Assembly: GCA_041640655.1 (NCBI GenBank)
Contig: JBEPZV010000047.1
Location: 1-17,950 of the forward strand
Source of the DNA: a bacterium
GTDB taxonomy: Bacteria > Acidobacteriota > Blastocatellia > HR10
Length of the DNA stretch: 17,950 nt
Direction of reading: 5' to 3'
The stretch's first letter is position 1. Each line of letters starts with the position of its first letter. The notes beneath the pieces are model-generated. The model did no database searches. It was given only the letters and a program-made list of their open reading frames with translations, and was not told the DNA's origin. Positions 9,859-17,950 of the stretch are shown piece by piece. Both the position numbers and the translations under genes were made by a program.

Positions 9859-10659
9859 TCACCACAGCAACTCTCCGCGCCATACGGTGACGGCGCGCCC
9901 GCCCAGATGCACGCGCTCGCCCGCTACACGAACGCGGATGACACCTCCACGCGGGGAGGCCTGGTAGGCGAGAAGCTCCGTTCGCCCCAGTCGCTGGCTC
10001 CAGAACGGCCCCAAGCAACAGTGCGCCGATCCCGTGACCGGATCTTCAGGAACACCGACGCGCGGGGCAAAAAAGCGAGAGACGAAATCAAACGGCGGCG
10101 TGGCCGCTCGACTCGTGACGATGATGCCGCGCGTCGGGATCCTCTCCAGAGCGGCGAAGTTCAGAGCGAGCTGTCGCACCGCATCTTCGGATTCGACCTC
10201 CACGAGATAATCGAATCGGCTCCGCCCCACGAAAACCGGCGTCACGTTTAATCCCTCCAGCAGGGCGGGGGGAGCGGCGACCGGTTCAGCTGGCGTCGCC
10301 GGAAAATCCAGCTCGATCCATTCGCCGTGACGTATGGCCGCGAGCACGCCGCTCCGCGTCGCGAAGCGAATCGGCTCGTCCGATCGGACGTACCCCTCGG
10401 TCCAGAGGATGTGCGCGCTCGCCAGCGTCGCATGGCCGCACAGCTCGACTTCGGTGACGGGCGTGAACCACCGGAGCTGAAATCCCCCTTCGCTCGGCCA
10501 GAGGAAGGCCGTCTCCGAGAGGTTCATCTCTCGCGCGACGTGCTGCATCCACGCCTCATCGGCCGGCTGCGAGAGAACGCACACGGCTGCGGGATTGCCC
10601 GAGAACGGCGCCTCCGTGAACGCATCAACCTGAAAGAGAGGCACGCCCATCACCTTCAT
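9859..10659 (-). CDS. PhzF family isomerase/epimerase
   Basis: QVDAFT..PFSGNPAAV, EMNLSETAF, RWFTP..EVELCGHATLA, SRFFAP..GV.EDPVTGSAHC. RBS spacing suggests the real start may be 10653 or 10650. Confidence 0.93.
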   Translation of the reverse strand: MKVMGVPLFQVDAFTEAPFSGNPAAVCVLSQPADEAWMQHVAREMNLSETAFLWPSEGGFQLRWFTPVTEVELCGHATLASAHILWTEGYVRSDEPIRFATRSGVLAAIRHGEWIELDFPATPAEPVAAPPALLEGLNVTPVFVGRSRFDYLVEVESEDAVRQLALNFAALERIPTRGIIVTSRAATPPFDFVSRFFAPRVGVPEDPVTGSAHCCLGPFWSQRLGRTELLAYQASPRGGVIRVRVAGERVHLGGRAVTVWRGELLW

Positions 10660-10687
10660 CCTCCATGTGGCCTCCGACAGAAGAGGA

Positions 10688-10716
10688 AAATTAGCCGAAT
10701 CCCTTCCTGCAGTCGA
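10688..10716 (-). promoter_or_regulatory. Candidate sigma70 promoter of the PhzF-DinB pair
   Basis: Minus strand TCGACT (10716-10711)-N17-TAATTT (10693-10688). Confidence 0.35.
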
Positions 10717-10890
10717 GACACCGCGGGCGATTCAAATGAGACGTTCCAGAGCGCACGTGACATCTCAGCCTCCCTCGTGGCGTGTCGCGCCACCGGCGTG
10801 GGCGCAGTCGCCTCGAGCAGGACCGAAGCGGACAACGGGCGTCCGGTTCCGAACATCCCTATGGGCGTGAGACTCGAGGAGGAGGGAACA

Positions 10891-12348
10891 ATGAGAGAGC
10901 ATCCGTGGTCTCGTCTTCTCGGTGTCGGCGTGCTCTGCGCTTCGGTGGGGAGGGTTCCATCCCCCCTCGCCCTGTCTCAGAGCGTCACCACGATGCAGGA
11001 GGATCGGCAGCGCGTCACACTGACCATCTACAGCAACGACGTCGGCCTCGTGCGCGAGGTGCGCCGTCTGCGCGTGCCGCGCGGGATCGTGCGCATTCAC
11101 GTTCAGGACATCGCCAGCACGCTGGATCCGGCGACCGTCGTCGTGACGGTACGTGATCGCGAGGGTCCCTTCGCGGTGCTGGAGCAGGAGTACGCGCACG
11201 ATGTCCTCAAGCCCGAGCGGTTGCTCGAACGGTCGGTGGGGAAAGAGCTGACGCTCGTGCGCCGCCTCATGGCGAACGGTGTGGAACAATTGGTCCCGGT
11301 CAAGGCCGTGCTGCTCGCCTACCGCGACGGCCAGGCTGTGTGGAAGATCGGCGATGAGGTCGTCATTCAACCGGCGATCGCGGAGATCCGCTTCCCCTCC
11401 ATCCCGGAAGGATTACGGGCTCAGCCAGCGCTCATCTGGACCGTGAGGAACGAAGCCGGGAGCGAGCGCGAGGTGGAGTTGTCCTATCTGGCCAGCGGTC
11501 TTCGATGGGAGGCGCATTACGTCCTGATGGTGGACGAGGCCGAGCGCGCGGCCGATCTGAGCGCCTGGGCGACGGTCACCAACCAAAGTGGCATCGCCTT
11601 CCGTCAGGCCGAGCTGCGGCTACTGGCCGGCGAGATTCAGCGCGTCGGCCCTTCGCGTCCGCGCGGCGTCGAGGTGTACGCGCTCGCTCGCGAGGCACAG
11701 GTTCAACAGCCCGAGGCGCGGGAGCAGGAGGTCTTCGAGTACCACCGCTACACGTTCGATCGCCCGGTGACGCTCGAACAGAACGAGACGAAGCAGCTGG
11801 CTCTGGCCGCCGCTCGCGGGGTGACCCTGCGGAAGGAGTACGTGGTGACCGGACAGGCGTATTATTATCGCCAGCCGATCGAGCCCGGACAGCCAATCCG
11901 GGAGCCCGTGCGCGTGACGCTCAGCTTCAAGAACGCGAAGGACGCAGGCCTGGGACTACCTCTGCCGGCTGGCATCGTGCGAGTATATAAGAGGGATCCG
12001 CAGGCGGGCCCGCAATTCCTCGGCGAAGATCGCATCGCGCACATCCCCCGCGACGAGTGGGTGCGGGTGACCGTGGGGAGGGCTTTCGATGTGATCGCCG
12101 AGCGCCGACAGACGGCGTTCCAACGGATCGGTCGCGACGTCTACGAATCCGAGTACGAGCTGCTCCTCCGCAATCGCAAGGATGAGGACATCACCATCAC
12201 GGTCCTCGAATCCGTCGGCGGAGATTGGGAGATCGTGCATTCCACCTTCCCGTGGGAGCGGGCGGGAGCCTTCGCCATCCGTTTCACCGTCCCCGTGGCA
12301 CGCGGCGCTGAAGCCAAACTCGTCTATCGGGTGCGAGTGAGATCGTGA
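10891..12348 (+). CDS. DUF4139 (DUF4140/DUF4139-type) exported protein
   Basis: Start placed at ATG 10891 after GAGGAGGAGGG. Signal-like N-terminus, VTLTIYSNDVGLVREVR, LSYLASGLRWEAHY, LSAWATVTNQSG, EYHRY, GLGLPLPAGIVRVY, FLGEDRI.H.P, and a beta-rich C-terminus ending in YRVRVRS. Confidence 0.8.
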   Translation: MREHPWSRLLGVGVLCASVGRVPSPLALSQSVTTMQEDRQRVTLTIYSNDVGLVREVRRLRVPRGIVRIHVQDIASTLDPATVVVTVRDREGPFAVLEQEYAHDVLKPERLLERSVGKELTLVRRLMANGVEQLVPVKAVLLAYRDGQAVWKIGDEVVIQPAIAEIRFPSIPEGLRAQPALIWTVRNEAGSEREVELSYLASGLRWEAHYVLMVDEAERAADLSAWATVTNQSGIAFRQAELRLLAGEIQRVGPSRPRGVEVYALAREAQVQQPEAREQEVFEYHRYTFDRPVTLEQNETKQLALAAARGVTLRKEYVVTGQAYYYRQPIEPGQPIREPVRVTLSFKNAKDAGLGLPLPAGIVRVYKRDPQAGPQFLGEDRIAHIPRDEWVRVTVGRAFDVIAERRQTAFQRIGRDVYESEYELLLRNRKDEDITITVLESVGGDWEIVHSTFPWERAGAFAIRFTVPVARGAEAKLVYRVRVRS

Positions 12349-12351
12349 TCG

Positions 12352-13584
12352 TTAAGCCGCCAGTGGCGCGCTCTCCGGCGTCGCCTCTTCAAGAAGCGGA
12401 CAGCCAGGCGGCAGCGCGGCGAGCTTGCGCCGGATGATGTCGGGCGAATATTTCCCGACGTAGTGCACGATCGTCTCAACGCGAATCTTGATGCTGCCAG
12501 CTGGCTTGGTCGCGTCCAGATCGCCGAACTTGAAATAGAGCGTGCCCGAAGCCTCCACGATCTTCTGCGTCGGGGTGTAGGTCGGCTGATCCATCCCGCA
12601 TTCGTAGCTGGAGAATCGGATGACGCACGTGATCCACGGGAAGCGAGCCGCGACTTTCGCCCCCCAGAGGATCTCGTTCGTGTTGCTGCTGTAGGAGGAG
12701 GGCCACACGTCCGAGATGTCGAAGGGACTCTTGATCCGCCCGGCGCGGATCTCTTCGCCGAAGAGCCACTGCATGAGGTCATCGTCAATGGGGAAGTACT
12801 GCATCCAGAGGATCGGGAAGCCGTGCGCTTGCAGTTCGGCCTCGATCTCATGCCCGATACCAGGGTCCATGTGATACGGGCGCGCCAGCACGAGGATACA
12901 CGGACGATCATGGCGCGCGCACCAGGTGAGGATCTCCCGACTCTTCTGCCGCATCTTCTGATTGAAGGCTTCCAGGGCGCGGTATCCCGCCTCGACGGCG
13001 CGCGCCGTCTCTTCTTCGCTCAGATCGAGCGCGTCCTTCAGCGCCAGATAGAGTTGCTTCGGGACCTTCTGCGGCTCTCCGAGCGAGACAAACGGCGAGA
13101 CATAGCGAATCCCATTCTCGGCGAAGACGTCGCGCTCTTTGAGGAAACCCGCCTTGATGTTCTCCGGCCCGGCCATCACGCGCGTGCAGGTGAGGGTATC
13201 GAGCACATGCCCGCGCAGGAAGGAGGGGAGGGAGTAGATCATCGGGCTCAGCAGGATGTCAATCTTCTTCTTCTGCCCAAAGATCAGCTCCCCATAGTGC
13301 CCGCTCATGCATTTGACCGGGTAACAGCAATCCACCGTGCCGCGCCCCTTGCCGTACTCACGATATTGCTCCTCGGAGGTGTCCGAGCTGAAGACGATGT
13401 TCTCCGGGGCGATCCCCAGAGCCGTCAGAAAGCCCACCCAGAATTGATGCGTGCTCCAGATGTTGAGGACCTTCGGGATCCCCACCCGAAGGTGCGAGCG
13501 GTCCGGACGCGCGTCCTCAGACCGCGTGGGGGATGCGCCGGAAGCCCTCTTTCCGAACCAGGTCCGCAATATTGGGATACGCAT
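12352..13584 (-). CDS. DUF2229-type CoA-enzyme-activase-associated Fe-S subunit (equivalent to the central region of PlsA)
   Basis: RVGIPKVLN..FW..F..LG, DCCYPVK..GH, LARPYHMDPGIGH, SYECGMD, DLDATKPAGSIKIRVET. The start is doubtful because of a 68-nt overlap with the upstream gene. Confidence 0.8.
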   Translation of the reverse strand: MRIPILRTWFGKRASGASPTRSEDARPDRSHLRVGIPKVLNIWSTHQFWVGFLTALGIAPENIVFSSDTSEEQYREYGKGRGTVDCCYPVKCMSGHYGELIFGQKKKIDILLSPMIYSLPSFLRGHVLDTLTCTRVMAGPENIKAGFLKERDVFAENGIRYVSPFVSLGEPQKVPKQLYLALKDALDLSEEETARAVEAGYRALEAFNQKMRQKSREILTWCARHDRPCILVLARPYHMDPGIGHEIEAELQAHGFPILWMQYFPIDDDLMQWLFGEEIRAGRIKSPFDISDVWPSSYSSNTNEILWGAKVAARFPWITCVIRFSSYECGMDQPTYTPTQKIVEASGTLYFKFGDLDATKPAGSIKIRVETIVHYVGKYSPDIIRRKLAALPPGCPLLEEATPESAPLAA

Positions 13585-15700
13585 CTTTGGTCTTCTCCAA
13601 TTCGGCTTTGATGACCTTCATCTCGTTGACGTCTTCCACAAGCCCCTTGGGGCAGGAGTTGTTGACGATCACTCGCTCCCACCCCTCGGGGAGAGGGACT
13701 TTGCTCCAGGGACGCCCCTTCCCGCCCGGCAGCTCCACATCGATGAAACTGCGCTGGCAATTCACCGGACACCACTTGCAGACCGTGTCGGGAGAGGTCG
13801 TCGTCTTGTAGGTGAGGCTCTCGATGACGTCGAAGCCGCGGAATCGCGTGCGCCCGCCGCGCTCCCACCATTCGTGGGCCAGCAGCGCCGCGCCGATCGC
13901 GCCCGCCTCGCCCGAATAGGGATGGACGACGATCTCGGCATCCGGGACCTTCGACTTGATGAAGTCCACCTGCGCTTTGACGACGGCCAGGTTCTTGTGG
14001 GTCCCTCCCTGCAGGATGAATTTCCGACCGATCTGCGCGAGATTGTTCAGCCCCCCCGCGTAAATCCACACGTTCAGCGGGAGAATGGCGCAGAGCCCAG
14101 CGAGAATCTCCTCCGCCTGCCAGCCCTTGCGCTGCTGGTTGACGATGTCGCTTTGCAGGAAGACGCCACAGCCCATCGTCAATTGCGGCATCGCCTGCGC
14201 GCGAAAGGCGTAGTCGGCGATCTGATCAAGCGGGATCCCGAAGCGCTCCGCCACCCCCTGAAGGAACGCGCCGTTGCCCGAGGAGCATTGCGAGTTGAGC
14301 CGGAAGTCCGAGACCGTGCCGTTTTTGAGGATCATGATCTTGACGTCCACGCCGCCGACATCGCAGATGCAATCGGCATCGGGGAAGAAATAGAGGCCGG
14401 CCGTCGCATGCGCGATCGTCTCCACAATGGCGCAGTCGGCGCCGATGATCTCCTTGAGCAGGTCCTTCCCATAGCCGGTGATGCCGACGGCCAGAACCTC
14501 TCCCTCGCCGATCGCTTCGCGAATCTGGCGAAAGAGCGCCTTCGCGTCTTCGATGGGATTTCCTCGACTGAGGGCATAGCAGGAGAAGACCAGTTCTTTC
14601 TCCGGGGAGAGGCAGACGGCCTTGGCCGTGGTCGAGCCGAAATCGCAGCCGAGGATCACGCGCGAGAGGTCGGGCGCCGCGCGCCGGGGTGCGAGCCGCG
14701 AGGCGGCCCGGCCATTAGTCCCATTCCCGTACGCGCGCGCGAACGCCTCTAATTCCTCCGGCGTCGTCCACAGCCCCTTTCGCCCCTCCCGCTTCTTCTC
14801 CTCATACTGTCCCTCCTCGATCCACCATCGGAGCTTCTCCGTGCCTTGGTAGACCCCTGTCTCTTCCGGTTCGCGTCGCGCGATCTCGATACATCCAAGG
14901 GCCGCATAGTAGAGCGCATCTTTGGGGACGCAGATGAGCGAGGCCGGATCGCGATCCTCCGGCAGTGGGACCTTGCGCTCCTCCCAGATCTTGATCAGGT
15001 GATGGCGCCACGCCTCCTGCAGGCCCTTGAAGAAGAGGTTCGGTCCGCCCAGAAGCAGGACTTCGGGCATCGGCGTATTGCCGCGCGTGAGCGTCGCCAG
15101 ATTCTGATAGACGACGGCCTCGAAGAGCGAGGCGATGATCTCCTCGACCGGGACGCCCGCCTTGAGCAGCGTGTTGGCATCCGCCTCGGCGAAGATGCCA
15201 CATTTGCTGCTGATCTTGTGGAGCGGATATCCCTCGTAGCGCATCTCCGCGAGTTGTTCCAAGGGGATCTGCAGTTTCCGCGCCGTCTTCTCGATGAACG
15301 TGCCGGTGCCGCCCGAGCACGCGCTCTGCATGAGGACCTGCTTTCCCTTGGACTGTCCATCGCCGGTGAAGAAGATCGTCTTCATGTCCTCGCCGCCGAT
15401 CTCGCTGACGAATCGAACGGCTGGATGCAGCCGCTCGACAGCCGCCGCCACGGCGACGACTTCCTGGACAACCCGAGCGCCCACGAGCGAGGCGATCAGC
15501 CCCGCGCCGGAACCCGTGAAGAAGACGCGATCCCGCCCCGGTGTCAGTCCGTGCTCGCGCTCCAAGCGGGTGAGGAATTCGAGAACCTTCTCCGCTTGCC
15601 GCGTGTTATGTCGCTCGTAGGCGTGGGCGAGAAGGTCGCCCTCGGATGAGGCCAGGACATACTTGCACGTCGTGCTGCCGACATCAATGCCACAGATCAT
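13517..15700 (-). CDS. Tandem BadF/BadG/BcrA/BcrD (HgdC-like) ATPase activator with a C-terminal Cys cluster (equivalent to the N-terminal half of PlsA/Ger)
   Basis: Two ASKHA activator domains: GIDVGSTT/TGSG/EIGGEDMK/SACSGGTG/KCGIFAE/GGP and GCDFGSTT/TGYG/DVGGVDVK/SQCSSGNG/GCGVFLQSD/QGGT/GAIGAAL, followed by C-x2-C-x3-C-x34-C. RBS GAGGAGGGGAGG. Confidence 0.92.
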   Translation of the reverse strand: MICGIDVGSTTCKYVLASSEGDLLAHAYERHNTRQAEKVLEFLTRLEREHGLTPGRDRVFFTGSGAGLIASLVGARVVQEVVAVAAAVERLHPAVRFVSEIGGEDMKTIFFTGDGQSKGKQVLMQSACSGGTGTFIEKTARKLQIPLEQLAEMRYEGYPLHKISSKCGIFAEADANTLLKAGVPVEEIIASLFEAVVYQNLATLTRGNTPMPEVLLLGGPNLFFKGLQEAWRHHLIKIWEERKVPLPEDRDPASLICVPKDALYYAALGCIEIARREPEETGVYQGTEKLRWWIEEGQYEEKKREGRKGLWTTPEELEAFARAYGNGTNGRAASRLAPRRAAPDLSRVILGCDFGSTTAKAVCLSPEKELVFSCYALSRGNPIEDAKALFRQIREAIGEGEVLAVGITGYGKDLLKEIIGADCAIVETIAHATAGLYFFPDADCICDVGGVDVKIMILKNGTVSDFRLNSQCSSGNGAFLQGVAERFGIPLDQIADYAFRAQAMPQLTMGCGVFLQSDIVNQQRKGWQAEEILAGLCAILPLNVWIYAGGLNNLAQIGRKFILQGGTHKNLAVVKAQVDFIKSKVPDAEIVVHPYSGEAGAIGAALLAHEWWERGGRTRFRGFDVIESLTYKTTTSPDTVCKWCPVNCQRSFIDVELPGGKGRPWSKVPLPEGWERVIVNNSCPKGLVEDVNEMKVIKAELEKTKDAYPNIADLVRKEGFRRIPHAV

Positions 15701-15729
15701 CGCCTCCCCTCCTCACCGAACCGTCTGCA

Positions 15730-17262
15730 TCACGCGGCGACCGAGCGCCCCATCTTCCGCGCCAAATGGCTGACGTAGTTCGCCGCCGTGCCCGCGTATC
15801 CGTAATGAGGGATACGATAGGTGCTGCATTGGACCTCCGGATGCCGCTCTTCGTAGCGCCGAATCGCCTCCAGGGTGAGGCCGGTCTTGGCGAGCACCTC
15901 CTCGAATTCCGCCTGCGCGCGTCGCTTGGCCTCGGTCAGGATCATCTGGCATCGGGAGAGCGCGTGCACCTCCGCATCCCCTTTCACCTCGATCGGCGCG
16001 TAGAGCAGATCCGGATAGCGTCCGAGCACATTGGCCATCGCTCCGATGGACATCGTGTTCGGCATGCAGGAATAGGGCGACAGCTCGCAAATCATGTGCG
16101 CCTTCTTGTGCCGATAGGCGTAGAGCGCTTTCCCCACGAGCATGTGTCCCTCCCCGCCCCGCAGCTCGTAATGATAGAAGGGCTTCGCCAACTGCTTGAG
16201 CTCCTCCTGATCGGGAAGTTCGTAAGGGAGACCTCCAAGCGCCTTGCGAAAGCGATTGTAGACGAAATGATAGATGTGCTCCAACGCGCGGATGAGCGCG
16301 ATCTTCTTGCGATCGCGCTCGGCGCCCTTCCATTCTTCGGAGGTGATCGGCGAGTGCAACAGATAGTCGAGCCAGACGGCGATCGGCGGCGGGATGACCT
16401 CGGCGCCCTCCTGCTCGAGCCAGCGCTTGATGTTGTAATTACCCTCTCCCTCGTGCGTCTGAAGCCAGAACTCGCCGGTGATCTTCACCTTCGGTTTGAC
16501 CCGGAGCCGATCCACCCGAATGCTCGCCCATCGCTTCCTGACCTCGCGCAGGGCCTCAGTGAAGTAATCCGTCAGGACGTGCCAGGCGAAGATCTTCAGC
16601 TTCCCCCCTCGGAGCTTCGCCTGAGGCCGATTCCGAAAAACGTCGTAGAGGTACTCGATGCTCTCCCTCAGGACGCGATCCGTCTCTCCAGGAATGACCT
16701 CGTACGGGCGCGTCATGTACTCCAGATCGGTCAACACATCGGCGCACAGGATGGCCCAGACCAACCCCAAGCTCAGCGGGAGGTTGATCTCCAATCCCCC
16801 ACCATGGGTCGCCCCTTGATCCAGCTGGTTCTGCGCCAGGAGAAAGAGGCGGAAGTCTCGCAATCCGAGCCCATCGAGCGCCATCGTGTACGATTCGTGA
16901 TACTGACCGAAACGGCACGGACCGCACGCCCCCGCCGTCAAGAAGACATACCGCTTCACGACCTCATCTCGACCGTGCGCGGCCATCTCCGACTTGAGGA
17001 AGTTCACCAGATTCCCCGTCGTGAAGATCGTCGGACAACACGCGCCGACGTCAATCAGCTCCTTCCCCGCGTCCAGATCCGCCCGCGTGATGTTCGGAAG
17101 CGGCTGGGCCTTGTAGCCCAAGTTGTGCATCACCCCTTGAATCAACCGCTCATGCTTCCACGTCAGCCCTCCGAAGAGGATCGTCACCGTCGCGCGCTCC
17201 TCGCGCGTGAAGGGACGCGGTCGGTAGGCCGTGTAATGGTTGATCCTCGTGATCGTCTCCAT
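15730..17262 (-). CDS. 2-hydroxyacyl-CoA dehydratase-like Fe-S subunit (PlsR-like)
   Basis: GACCPTIFTTGNL, TAGACGPCRFGQY, KVKITGEFW..GNY...WLEQEGAEV, GGEGHM, SPYSCMPN. Start placed at ATG 17262 after AAGGAGGGG; the track's 17292 start lies inside the palindrome. Confidence 0.8.
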   Translation of the reverse strand: METITRINHYTAYRPRPFTREERATVTILFGGLTWKHERLIQGVMHNLGYKAQPLPNITRADLDAGKELIDVGACCPTIFTTGNLVNFLKSEMAAHGRDEVVKRYVFLTAGACGPCRFGQYHESYTMALDGLGLRDFRLFLLAQNQLDQGATHGGGLEINLPLSLGLVWAILCADVLTDLEYMTRPYEVIPGETDRVLRESIEYLYDVFRNRPQAKLRGGKLKIFAWHVLTDYFTEALREVRKRWASIRVDRLRVKPKVKITGEFWLQTHEGEGNYNIKRWLEQEGAEVIPPPIAVWLDYLLHSPITSEEWKGAERDRKKIALIRALEHIYHFVYNRFRKALGGLPYELPDQEELKQLAKPFYHYELRGGEGHMLVGKALYAYRHKKAHMICELSPYSCMPNTMSIGAMANVLGRYPDLLYAPIEVKGDAEVHALSRCQMILTEAKRRAQAEFEEVLAKTGLTLEAIRRYEERHPEVQCSTYRIPHYGYAGTAANYVSHLARKMGRSVAA

Positions 17263-17285
17263 AGGCGCTCCCCTCCTTCTTCGGA

Positions 17286-17319
17286 TCCCCACTAGACTGA
17301 CATGTCAGTCTAGTGGGGA
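17286..17319. promoter_or_regulatory. Perfect 34-bp palindrome, probable operator of the adjacent TetR protein
   Basis: TCCCCACTAGACTGACATGTCAGTCTAGTGGGGA is its own reverse complement. It lies between the tetR stop and the RBS of the next gene and is flanked by A10 (17323-17332). Confidence 0.75.
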
Positions 17320-17333
17320 GGCAAAAAAAAAAT

Positions 17334-17948
17334 TCACGATGTGGCCGAGCGAGCGAAGACTCCCCGCAAGCCGAAGTTGAAGAGCTCCTCGACGACGGTC
17401 TCCAGCGGAGGCATGTCCTCGCGACGCGTCGTCAGTTGATCCGCCACTTCTTTCATCGTCCCCAAGATGCAGGACGCGACGATGCGCGTTTGACAGGGGC
17501 GCACCAGGCCCATGCGAATGCCGTGTTCCAATGAACGCTCAATGAGCGAGAGGACACGGTCATAAAAGGCTTGCAAGACAGCCGCCGAGCGTTCGTCCAA
17601 GCCCGCCGCCTGATGGAGGAGAATCTTGGTCAGTTCCGGGTCTCGAACCAGAAATTCCAGAACGCGACCGATGTTCGCTTTGACCTGCTCCAGAGGATCC
17701 GGCGCGCCCGGGTTGAGATCAATCGGCTTGATCCGCTGGCGCAACTCTTTGAGGACCTCCTCCAGGAGGCTATCGAAGATGTCACGCTTGCTCGTGAAAT
17801 AGAGATAAAACGTGCCGCGCGCAATCCCGGCGCTCTCGATGATGTCGGAGACGCTGGCGTTGTGATAGCCCTTTTGCGAGAAGACGTGCTTAGCGAAGAA
17901 GAGGATCTGATTCCGCCGCGCTTCCTTCAGCTCTTTCTGAACAACCAC
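17334..17948 (-). CDS. TetR/AcrR family transcriptional regulator; the start may lie outside the window
   Basis: RRNQILFFAKHVFSQKGYHNASVSDIIESAGIARGTFYLYFTSKRDIF is a TetR HTH. About 204 aa with a helical C-terminal domain. GTG at 17948 is 2 nt from the window edge. Confidence 0.93.
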   Translation of the reverse strand: MVVQKELKEARRNQILFFAKHVFSQKGYHNASVSDIIESAGIARGTFYLYFTSKRDIFDSLLEEVLKELRQRIKPIDLNPGAPDPLEQVKANIGRVLEFLVRDPELTKILLHQAAGLDERSAAVLQAFYDRVLSLIERSLEHGIRMGLVRPCQTRIVASCILGTMKEVADQLTTRREDMPPLETVVEELFNFGLRGVFARSATS

Positions 17949-17950
17949 CC

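Follow-up and report, generated by a model that had tools for sequence, protein, structure and literature searches.

Gene content and layout of the locus

The window analysed here is an entire 17,950-bp contig from a hot-spring acidobacterium (MAG 89.8% complete), and its visible sequence stops just upstream of a set of four minus-strand genes, which run in the order TetR, R, ActAct and DUF2229. The first gene (17334..17948) encodes a TetR-family, Bacillus FadR-like repressor of 204 aa (PF00440 1.4e-15, TetR_C_24 5e-08), with a GTG start two bases off the contig end that is identical in the relative L015. It is followed by R (15730..17262), a PlsR-like catalytic subunit without a Pfam family that was assigned by fold and module homology; its ATG start downstream of an AAGGAGG site gives 510 aa, and an alternative GTG start (520 aa) falls within the palindrome described below. 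ActAct (13517..15700) is a double activase of 727 aa with two BcrAD_BadFG ATPase halves and a C-terminal CxxCxxxC...C motif, and the DUF2229 subunit (12352..13584; PF09989 8.2e-44) is a second catalytic-type subunit of 410 aa. TetR and R are separated by 71 nt and R and ActAct by 29 nt, and ActAct and DUF2229 overlap by 68 nt, in agreement with the original prediction of four co-oriented, tightly spaced genes that hold the activator-activator-Cys motif, DUF2229 and R modules in a permuted, split arrangement. One RNA library yielded contigs that overlap part of each of the four genes, although such coverage does not prove transcription. Among related loci, the flanking genes showed no conservation and no recurring lipid gene.

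Between TetR and R lies a perfect 32-bp palindrome, CCCCACTAGACTGACATGTCAGTCTAGTGGGG (17287..17318), which is present in a single copy in the genome (search with the 20-mer core, up to 3 mismatches). We found that its 24-bp core recurs between the same two genes in three relatives (exact in L015, with exact half-sites in L085 and with one mismatch in L070), and that 59 of 120 metagenome loci have the motif next to a TetR-like gene. Eight of 96 related loci carry a TetR orthologue (40–68% identity) beside the corresponding enzyme genes. Judged from these sequences, the conserved 24–32 bp palindrome is probably the TetR operator. Just ahead of the palindrome, in minus-strand reading, is a run of ten T (17323..17332), and a T-run also occupies the equivalent position in L015, L070 and L085. 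The length of this T-run differs among strains, and runs X3, X5 and X9 lack two bases at 17323.

The regulator resembles Bacillus-type FadR (YsiA) over its full length (residues 8–195): four of its six top PDB sequence matches are Bacillus FadR structures (5gpa, 5gp9, 1vi0 and 3whb; 8e-15 to 2.5e-13), and both systems place a palindromic operator ahead of the controlled genes. Its best NCBIfam match is likewise FadR-Bac, but the score of 71.6 bits is under the equivalog cut-off of 200, and the palindrome sequence differs from the FadR box. A TetR-family regulator also adjoins plsA in facultative anaerobes, including E. faecalis, where the TetR gene lies upstream (PMC9702350).

Fold and predicted pairing of the enzyme subunits

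ActAct matches PF01869 twice (2.2e-76, Pfam) and TIGR00241 with 241 bits, over the cut-off of 125 (NCBIfam). Its cysteines C128, C167, C472, C511, C641, C644 and C648 are invariant in all 72 subfamily and 23 Ger-type rows of the alignment, and C683 is invariant in the 72 subfamily rows. In most relatives, ActAct and DUF2229 form one ORF, and the division into three genes could mean that this copy is inactive and in decay. We regard decay as very improbable: the split point lies in a linker of roughly 35 residues and is shared with an order-level relative whose three enzyme proteins are 72–81% identical to those of the window, all frames are open, every conserved cysteine is retained, and contigs from four of four other runs have no indel in 13517–13584. 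The recurrence of the split and the absence of an indel also led us to reject an assembly error.

Profile and sequence searches with R returned zero Pfam, NCBIfam or PDB sequence matches, so that its earlier description as dehydratase-like could be tested by fold only. The predicted structure (pLDDT 90, pTM 0.91) resembles the catalytic subunits HadC (3o3m_D, VIA Z 10.6), BzdNO (8s02_B, 10.1) and DCCP (7yyl_D, 9.9) over ~285 aligned residues, and this fold bears the description out. The DUF2229 model (pLDDT 88) gave VIA Z of 13.3 (8s02_B), 13.1 (3o3m_D) and 11.9 (6eno). Both models therefore share the catalytic-subunit fold of 2-hydroxyacyl-CoA dehydratases, benzoyl-CoA reductases and DCCP (Z 10–13 over ~270–290 residues), and the next unrelated structures reach Z 7–8. 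R is strongly conserved (71–99% identity among the best 120 of 4081 matches), and DUF2229 is the sole copy in the genome. The conserved cysteines are C75, C113, C116 and C399 in R and C87, C133 and C329 in DUF2229.

Foldseek ranked DCCP first for R (7yyl_A, E 2.1e-4), the Z scores of DCCP are 9.5–9.9 with R and 11.1–11.9 with DUF2229, and in the relative P0155, R is joined in one protein to a GltD-like NAD(P)H oxidoreductase that carries ferredoxin domains. We therefore considered an enzyme that, like DCCP, reduces small unsaturated molecules and acts on neither a lipid nor a CoA substrate. DCCP is a homodimer with a separate reductase and reduces acetylene. The two subunits here are instead different proteins with 4 and 3 conserved cysteines, HadBC and BzdNO tie with DCCP in Z, and the gene context holds no pointer to small-molecule metabolism; we consider such an activity improbable.

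The predicted DUF2229-R complex reached an ipSAE of 0.74 (0.74, 0.69 and 0.76 in three runs) versus 0.00 for the best control. Of 157 solved complexes, 116 reach the mark that we used, as do 2 of 215 mismatched pairs. The runs had at least 83% of contacts in common, with partner pLDDT of at least 85, and the predicted interface contains the conserved-cysteine stretches. R and DUF2229 are thus predicted to pair via their conserved cysteines. We know of no solved structure of PlsA; as HadBC and BzdNO heterodimers have been solved, the complex score may partly reflect likeness to those.

The system shares with the dehydratases, class I benzoyl-CoA reductases and DCCP (3o3m, 8s02, 9g87, 6eno/7yyl) the fold of both catalytic subunits, a heterodimer with clusters near the interface (as predicted here) and an ATP-driven activase of the BcrAD_BadFG family. 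It differs from them in its fused double-domain activase with an extra cysteine motif and in lacking a PF06050 (HGD-D) signal, for which R, ActAct and DUF2229 gave no match at E≤0.01 in the Pfam search. Those enzymes are known to act on CoA thioesters or on small molecules.

Relationship to PlsA/PlsR, Ger and the Solibacter usitatus genes

Sequence searches link each of R, ActAct and DUF2229 to Act-Act-DUF2229-R proteins of ~1400 aa (1e-12 to 1e-52; 22–30% identity to those of Acidobacteria and Thermodesulfobacteriota), with R homologous to the C-terminal module of the fused proteins. Relatives of these ~1400-aa proteins, mostly from Thermodesulfobacteriota, carry PF01869+PF06050+PF09989, the same domain make-up that has been described for Ger (PMC13159169 section 10). 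Natural fusions join the same modules in different orders, as R-Act-Act-DUF2229 (P0151, 1623 aa), Act-Act-DUF2229-R (P0178, 1579 aa) and DUF2229-R (P0147), and R comes first in 60 of 70 complete subfamily loci. In FastTree analysis, the branch between the subfamily and the Ger-type group is about 2.8 changes per column long, and the window's pair forms the deepest branch of the subfamily. The activase cysteine pairs and the CxxCxxxC motif are common to both groups, whereas the catalytic cysteine sets are not the same: R has an invariant C113 in the subfamily but N or S at this position in Ger-type proteins, which have Cys at the positions of R L48 and T78, plus one extra in DUF2229. On sequence grounds, the system is a separate, widespread subfamily and is not orthologous to the Ger/PlsA-type proteins of ~1400 aa. 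The original prediction therefore stands in its modules, its mechanism class and its kinship to PlsA/PlsR and Ger over HgdAB/BcrBC at the sequence level, but not in grouping the system inside Ger/PlsA or in treating the R-first order, the rule in this subfamily, as a peculiarity of the locus.

Links to named systems were set by published sizes, domains and BLAST values. Ger (T. maritima AGL49404.1, D. alkenivorans SHJ90043; PMC13159169) is also built from a pair of activase domains, DUF2229 and a catalytic module at the C-terminus, but these lie in a single ~1400-aa protein in which R comes last and PF06050 is present as weak pieces (BBDHDDH). C. perfringens PlsA/PlsR (CPE1195/CPE1194; a single-gene PlsA in E. 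faecalis) likewise pairs an Act-Act-DUF2229 protein with a separate R, yet plsA precedes plsR, and PlsR has 420 aa versus 510–600 aa here. By gene size, order and domains, the subfamily is that of the 'BBD' Ger homologues described elsewhere and that of Acid_0921/Acid_0922 of Solibacter usitatus Ellin6076 (PMC10087280). Acid_0921 has 589 aa and Acid_0922 has 1188 aa (PF01869 x2 + PF09989), and the published identities of the pair are 30.2% to PlsA and 20.9% to PlsR. This pair also has R, without a Pfam domain, ahead of Act-Act-DUF2229; its sizes agree with those of Bryobacteraceae/Solibacteraceae relatives (R of 582–602 aa; a fused partner of 1188 aa in L097 and L046), and S. usitatus is an oxygen-respiring acidobacterium, also with Tes homologues. 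The window differs in its separate Act-Act and DUF2229, its shorter R (510 aa) and the TetR and operator in front, and its proteins are about 41–48% identical to the Bryobacteraceae forms.

Both families occur together in 3 of 301 genomes of the phylum (G239, G147 and G010), which suggests that the subfamily and the Ger type are non-redundant. Tes above cut-off was found in 22 of 32 Ger-type genomes, 6 of 20 subfamily genomes and 16 of 249 genomes with neither (counted by hand, with related genomes not independent), a co-occurrence that is strong for the Ger type and weak for the subfamily.

Proposed mechanism and substrate

The conserved modules fit ATP-driven electron injection through Fe-S clusters, the class originally proposed. 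One [4Fe-4S] cluster would be held between the double-activase halves (C128/C167 and C472/C511), and ATP hydrolysis would drive a low-potential electron, probably routed via a second activase site (C641, C644, C648 and C683), into the DUF2229-R heterodimer, where the conserved cysteines at the interface should bind the catalytic clusters. By analogy with PlsA/PlsR and Ger, the only tested relatives, the substrate would most likely be a membrane glycerolipid, with its ester carbonyl reduced to an alkyl or alk-1-enyl ether. The FadR-like TetR may sit on the palindrome ahead of R and be released upon binding an acyl-CoA or lipid-like ligand.

A FadR-like repressor suits an acyl-CoA substrate equally well, and the same machinery could be a reductase or dehydratase of acyl-CoA or another activated carbonyl, induced via an acyl-CoA-sensing repressor. 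The two catalytic subunits fold like HadBC/BzdNO, the nearest solved relatives and top NCBIfam match of the repressor are FadR, which in Bacillus binds acyl-CoA, and the subfamily, which branches off deeply, has a cysteine set of its own and is weakly linked to Tes, is present in lineages without an ether-lipid record (for example Dehalococcoidia, Planctomycetota and Ignavibacteria). However, sequence similarity is solely to the PlsA/Ger-type architecture and not to HGD-D, a canonical cluster (2 activases, 2 HGD-D, SDR and amidohydrolase) lies elsewhere in the genome, beta-oxidation and CoA-ligase genes are not recurrent beside the operon, and very high conservation across soil lineages fits a core envelope role better than niche catabolism. 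We thus hold an acyl-CoA substrate to be possible, if on balance unlikely.

Several observations count against a lipid ester substrate as well. Enzymes of this ATP-driven Fe-S class are oxygen-sensitive, and four haem-copper oxidase matches indicate that the host respires oxygen. The separate branch, the differing cysteine sets, the weak Tes link, the rarity of genomes with both families and the unconserved flanks with no recurring lipid gene weigh in the same direction, as does an elb-like cluster in the host genome. In favour of a lipid role, the host has a Tes homologue (576 bits, over the curated cut-off of 450). The role in ether-lipid or brGDGT synthesis that we infer is already in print for S. 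usitatus: in their Geobiology paper, Halamka et al. propose that the 'PlsAR homologues' Acid_0921/Acid_0922 turn ester into ether bonds during brGDGT synthesis, in an organism that makes iso-C15 ethers and brGDGTs and for which ElbD is given as absent (PMC10087280 section 4.4, supplementary Table S6). E. aggregans is another ether former with a 'BBD' Ger homologue (PMC13159169 Table S21). Taken as a whole, the four genes may be an operon under repressor control that encodes a three-subunit, ATP-driven Fe-S radical reductase of the PlsA/PlsR-Ger superfamily, likely acting on lipid ester carbonyls, a reading to which we give about an even chance.

Gene organisation and the R module

Gene calls together with Pfam and NCBIfam searches confirmed the four co-oriented genes of the original prediction, all on the minus strand: a TetR repressor (17334–17948; 204 aa, TetR_N), a PlsR-like protein here termed R (15730–17262; 510 aa, no Pfam family), a double activase termed ActAct (13517–15700; 727 aa), and a DUF2229 protein (12352–13584; 410 aa). 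Of the profile searches proposed with that prediction, those for BcrAD_BadFG and DUF2229 found PF01869 twice in ActAct and PF09989 in the last protein at 150.3 bits versus a cut-off of 29.4. The TetR-R and R-ActAct gaps measure 71 and 29 nt, and ActAct and DUF2229 overlap by 68 nt. A 520-aa R from a GTG start was rejected in favour of the 510-aa form, which begins at an ATG downstream of AAGGAGG. The remaining genes of the contig are housekeeping (accD-like, rluB-like, scpA/B, trpS, dnaB, two VWA, DinB, PhzF, and DUF4139), and a neighbourhood comparison found no conserved flanking genes around the system. The DUF4139 ORF (10327–12348, plus strand) is convergent with the operon; translated from the GTG at which it is listed, it has a long N-terminus of low complexity, and a later start before a signal-peptide-like stretch (MREHPWSRLLGVGVLC...) looks more likely. 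Within 12100–17950 no sigma-70-like promoter was found and the terminator count was not above chance. Each of the four genes is covered in part by contigs from a single RNA library, which says nothing on transcription, strand or level, the uncovered stretches being uninformative as well. The window is one complete contig of 17,950 bp from a MAG (3.13 Mb, 128 contigs, completeness 89.8%), and near-identical DNA occurs in hot-spring- and sediment-labelled runs (20 rows from 17 studies; two may themselves be the source DNA).

R has no match in Pfam, NCBIfam, or, by sequence, the PDB, and the DUF2229 protein has no meaningful PDB sequence match. A protein search with R gave 4081 matches among 8000 scored candidates, the best 120 being 71–99% identical; across the 120 best matches of a Bryobacteraceae R, identity was 86–93%. 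These relatives are 500–540 aa long and are named at most ‘hypothetical’ or ‘predicted nucleotide-binding protein’, and an ESM Atlas search returned only unnamed or loosely named clusters. Against 1.84 billion cluster representatives, R matched 1836 clusters at E ≤ 1e-3, including 222 at E ≤ 1e-30. R is PlsR-like in being homologous to the C-terminal third of fused superfamily members: it matches residues ~1010–1400 of ~1400-aa proteins at 1e-14 to 1e-24. Natural fusions among the cluster-search relatives join the same modules, namely R-Act-Act-DUF2229 by Pfam in P0151 (1623 aa), in the order of the operon, Act-Act-DUF2229-R in P0178 (1579 aa; 37% identity to R), in the canonical order, and DUF2229-R in P0147. 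In P0155 (1271 aa), R is joined to a GltD/NfnB-like NAD(P)H oxidoreductase module (Fer4_20, Pyr_redox_2, and two Fer4), an arrangement hinting that some lineages draw electrons directly from NAD(P)H.

Predicted folds of R and DUF2229 point to catalytic subunits. The AlphaFold model of R (40-row alignment; pLDDT 90, pTM 0.91) had DCCP (E 2e-4), BzdNO, and HadBC as top Foldseek matches, and VIA-align gave Z 10.6 to HadC 3o3m_D (rmsd 4.8, 288 residues aligned), 10.1 to 8s02_B, and 9.9 to 7yyl_D. These alignments span ~285 residues (20–448), with the next unrelated rows at Z 7.6. The DUF2229 model (pLDDT 88) matched the same PDB entries at Z 13.3 (rmsd 4.3, 273 aligned), 13.1, and 11.9, the row after these scoring 8.1. 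Since both proteins match the same catalytic-subunit folds, both are catalytic-subunit-like; because a profile comparison between them was not significant (probability 0.7%, E 0.08), the argument for their paralogy is one of fold alone. They share this fold with the HgdAB, HadBC, BcrBC, and BzdNO subunits without belonging to the PF06050 family of those enzymes: the HGD-D search proposed with the original prediction gave no PF06050 match at E ≤ 0.01 for R or DUF2229, unlike many Ger-type relatives (~1400-aa Act-Act-DUF2229-R proteins). An acyl-CoA or another carbonyl as the substrate is a serious rival to a lipid ester.

R and DUF2229 are also predicted to form a complex, with an ipSAE of 0.74 (runs of 0.74, 0.69, and 0.76) versus 0.00 for the best control; of solved complexes 116 of 157 reached the mark used, and of mismatched pairs 2 of 215. 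The runs agree in at least 83% of contacts, and partner pLDDT is at least 85. The predicted interface comprises DUF2229 residues 82–86, 131–135, and 328–334 and R residues 71–75, 113–117, and 398–401, which in the model are the neighbourhoods of conserved cysteines. Because the HadBC and BzdNO heterodimers have been solved, the score may in part be likeness to known structures, and the natural fusions are the stronger argument for the complex.

Two families of three-module systems

R matches occurred in 52 of 301 genomes of the phylum, a sample that includes three unpublished genomes (G152, G024, and G049) on which no separate claim is based, and fell into two classes without intermediates. 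In 20 genomes the match was full-length at 38–73% identity; in the other 32 it covered R residues ~40–410 at 24–31%, in ORFs of ~1400 or ~440 aa. When the four window proteins were mapped on 16 loci, those of the first class held R, ActAct, and DUF2229 at 33–81% identity, and those of the second the order Act-Act-DUF2229-R at 22–29%. Relatives of one second-class protein (from locus L028; 1413 aa) are ~1400 aa long, carry PF01869, PF09989, and often PF06050, and bear names from Thermodesulfobacteriota or Deltaproteobacteria MAGs. This architecture is the one published for Ger (BBDHDDH and variants, in the accessible text of PMC13159169). Both families reside together in three genomes (G239, G147, and G010).

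The original prediction described a PlsA/PlsR/Ger-like system. The proteins fall outside the clade of the ~1400-aa Ger-type proteins: a FastTree phylogeny of the joined modules (95 rows, 1615 columns) separated 72 rows of the window's subfamily from 23 Ger-type rows by a branch of ~2.8 changes per column, at support 100. These Ger-type rows are unnamed relatives and not characterised enzymes. The deepest branch of the subfamily consists of the window and an order-level relative (G291), a point in the tree where the tool warns of long branches meeting.

The cysteines of the same 72 and 23 rows follow this division in part. ActAct C128, C167, C472, C511, C641, C644, and C648 are invariant in both groups; its two tandem ATPase domains each hold two cluster-type cysteines (C128, C167, C472, and C511, in 95 of 95 rows), and the first pair has residue numbers close to those of the HgdC cluster ligands. 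C683 of ActAct was seen only in the subfamily, as the Ger-type segments stop short of it, and no ActAct cysteine specific to the 23 Ger-type rows was seen. In DUF2229, C87 and C133 are invariant in both groups and C329 (97%) belongs to the subfamily only, with one extra cysteine in the Ger-type rows. In R, C75, C116, and C399 are invariant in both groups and C113 is restricted to the subfamily, and the Ger-type rows have cysteines at the positions of R residues L48 and T78. DCCP, which ties with HadBC and BzdNO as a fold match of R and DUF2229, is a homodimer in which a single subunit supplies the cysteines for an [Fe8S9] cluster, whereas the window system has four and three conserved cysteines on two different subunits, a comparison of ligand pattern and not of aligned residues. 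That the operon encodes a reductase of the PlsA/PlsR-Ger superfamily is well supported, and we hold this assignment with high confidence.

The permuted order noted in the original prediction is real here, with R first and DUF2229 last and separate, yet it is not particular to this locus: R is first in 60 of the 70 loci with a complete set of modules, which makes R-first the subfamily's normal order. In the other 10 loci R is last (seven Chloroflexota, two Planctomycetota, and G002), and with the fused P0178 these make up a single clade (support 99). Most members carry ActAct and DUF2229 in one ORF of ~1190 aa; in the window and in G291 this is cut within a linker of ~35 residues. An assembly frameshift at the overlap was rejected, given the same cut in G291 and the absence of an indel in contigs of four other runs.

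A species-level genome collection contained at least 595 matching loci, the best 80 of which are all from MAGs. The named carriers among these best 80 are Bryobacteraceae, Bryobacterales, Terriglobia, Blastocatellia, Solibacteraceae, Candidatus Solibacter, and Candidatus Sulfopaludibacter, together with Dehalococcoidia/SAR202, Planctomycetota, Ignavibacteria, Poribacteria, Dadabacteria, Zixibacteria, Nitrospirae, Thermoleophilia, Spirochaetia, and Krumholzibacteriia. The window system is 38–50% identical to Bryobacteraceae members, with an R lacking a Pfam family directly beside Act-Act-DUF2229.

A FadR-like repressor and its putative operator

The window TetR is nearest to Bacillus-type FadR, yet it scored 71.6 bits against NCBIfam FadR-Bac (NF053878), below the equivalog cut-off of 200. 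Four of its six best PDB sequence matches are FadR entries (5gpa, 5gp9, 1vi0, and 3whb; 8e-15 to 2.5e-13, full-length). In 8 of 96 related loci (five Dehalococcoidia, two Poribacteria, and G291), orthologues at 40–68% identity adjoin the system.

The interval from the TetR stop to the R start contains a perfect 32-bp palindrome (17287–17318), which is preceded by a run of ten Ts and is unique in the genome. G291 and the two Poribacteria loci also have its 24-bp core, ACTAGACTGA-N4-TCAGTCTAGT, in the TetR–R interval, and beside this operon the site was seen in two phyla; one more match, with 5 mismatches in 1.18 Mb, is probably due to chance. The motif also occurs in at least 120 metagenome loci. 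Among those listed, a TetR-like gene adjoins it in 59 of 120, R or ActAct in 11 of 120, and both in 6 of 120, with flanks of only 300 nt in 40 of the 120. Most of these motif-linked TetRs (loci L120–L239) belong to a different subfamily with TetR_C_6 or TetR_C_17 C-terminal domains, start 20–45 nt from the motif, and in the DNA-binding part are 40–47% identical to the window TetR. Patatin-like phospholipases (6 loci), EamA, Rce1-like, YflT, and HAD proteins are among their neighbours. We rejected the idea that the palindrome is specific to this operon, as its half-sites stand mostly before other TetR paralogues with other neighbours. The recurrence of the same half-sites before other TetRs argues that a TetR group with a common DNA-binding head and varied ligand domains very probably uses the palindrome as its operator.

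DNA contigs of three sequencing runs (X3, X5, and X9) end or start at the palindrome (17286–17319), and the adjacent T-run differs in length by two bases between strains. The end of the window's contig 2 nt past the TetR start may have a similar assembly cause.

Ether-lipid context and predicted function

Among terrestrial palaeoclimate proxies, branched GDGTs rank with the most widely used. To our knowledge no enzyme has been proven to form their ether bonds in Acidobacteria, and the published candidate is the PlsAR-like pair of S. usitatus. According to the accessible text of Halamka et al. (PMC10087280), Acid_0922 (1188 aa, two PF01869 and PF09989) is 30.2% identical to C. perfringens PlsA and Acid_0921 (589 aa) 20.9% identical to PlsR, the two are proposed as ester-to-ether enzymes toward brGDGTs, and S. 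usitatus is without ElbD. We liken the window system to this pair by published lengths, order, and domains and by Solibacteraceae and Candidatus Solibacter MAG loci (L097 and L088). As far as the accessible text of Sahonero-Canavesi et al. (PMC13159169) goes, the ether-forming E. aggregans has a ‘BBD’ Ger homologue (their shorthand for Act-Act-DUF2229) and H. foetida a BBDHDH one, and no Ger homologue is given for S. usitatus or in SD4 strains. The accessible part of a 2026 sponge-symbiont preprint (10.64898/2026.06.23.733905) reports only ‘BBD’ partial matches in Acidobacteriota, Chloroflexota, Proteobacteria, as well as Latescibacterota, and reads the absent second reduction domain as a feature of the protein; our results suggest that the missing part is the adjoining R gene. 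In the literature library searched, no paper on the subfamily architecture turned up under DUF2229, and no experimental test of the subfamily under PlsA, PlsR, plasmalogen, and glycerol ester reductase.

The window genome also encodes a Tes homologue, a 577-aa radical SAM protein on the minus strand of another contig (G000:C6:61313-62782; L114:748-2481) that scored 576 bits against NF045702 (cut-off 450). A longer, 750-aa paralogue (G000:C26:19625-21184; L119:763-3015) scored 323 bits, below the cut-off, and belongs to a class widespread in the phylum. The two are similar in size to the Tes homologues of S. usitatus (545 and 714 aa; accessible text of PMC10087280). Tes above the cut-off was present in 44 of 301 genomes of the phylum: 6 of 20 subfamily carriers, 22 of 32 genomes with the Ger type only, and 16 of 249 with neither (14 of them in family f24), counts that were combined by hand over related, non-independent genomes and serve as a description, not a test. 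Tes goes clearly with the Ger type and weakly with the window's subfamily. In family f24, 14 of 20 genomes have Tes above the cut-off and no R match of either family, and its use of Tes needs no PlsAR/Ger-like enzyme detectable with the R query.

A second, oxygen-compatible ether-lipid route in the same genome is possible, in the form of an elb-like cluster (G000:C3 ~97994-106864; L111:994-9864) with a PlsC-type acyltransferase, a DAG-kinase-like protein, an AMP-binding enzyme, a carrier protein, a polysaccharide deacetylase, a Fer2 protein, and a divergent HAD-hydrolase/fatty-acyl-reductase fusion (NAD_binding_4 and Sterile domains). Four haem-copper oxidase matches in the genome indicate aerobic respiration. 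A canonical BCR/HAD-type cluster (G000:C2:3261-8990; L112) with two single-domain activases, two HGD-D proteins, an SDR, and an amidohydrolase sits in this same oxygen-respiring acidobacterium.

Reduction of lipid esters to ethers is our best single guess at the function of the operon, a prediction already published as a hypothesis for the same subfamily and one to which we give an even chance. More tentatively, and with the odds somewhat against it, the subfamily might be the missing ether-bond enzyme in Acidobacteria that respire oxygen and in many other bacteria of soils, sediments, and sponges, which together with Tes would lead to brGDGT-type lipids and whose own ligand set (C113 in R) would give it a chemistry or oxygen tolerance unlike that of Ger/PlsA. 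Such a subfamily would be under-counted in genome surveys because R is without a family model and ‘BBD’ alone looks incomplete.

What this analysis adds is the separation from Ger/PlsA, the finding that an unannotated R gene is generally present, the form with three genes, a FadR-like repressor whose operator is conserved, and the co-residence with Tes in a thermophile. The window locus is a thermophile's version of the S. usitatus-type subfamily, in the same genome as a Tes homologue, and its three-subunit enzyme is convenient for biochemistry. The separateness of the subfamily from Ger/PlsA, its weak co-occurrence with Tes, and the FadR-like repressor and conserved operator that accompany it in several phyla all bear on tests and genome screens, in which the third module is to be sought as a gene without a family model before or after an annotated ‘BBD’ protein.
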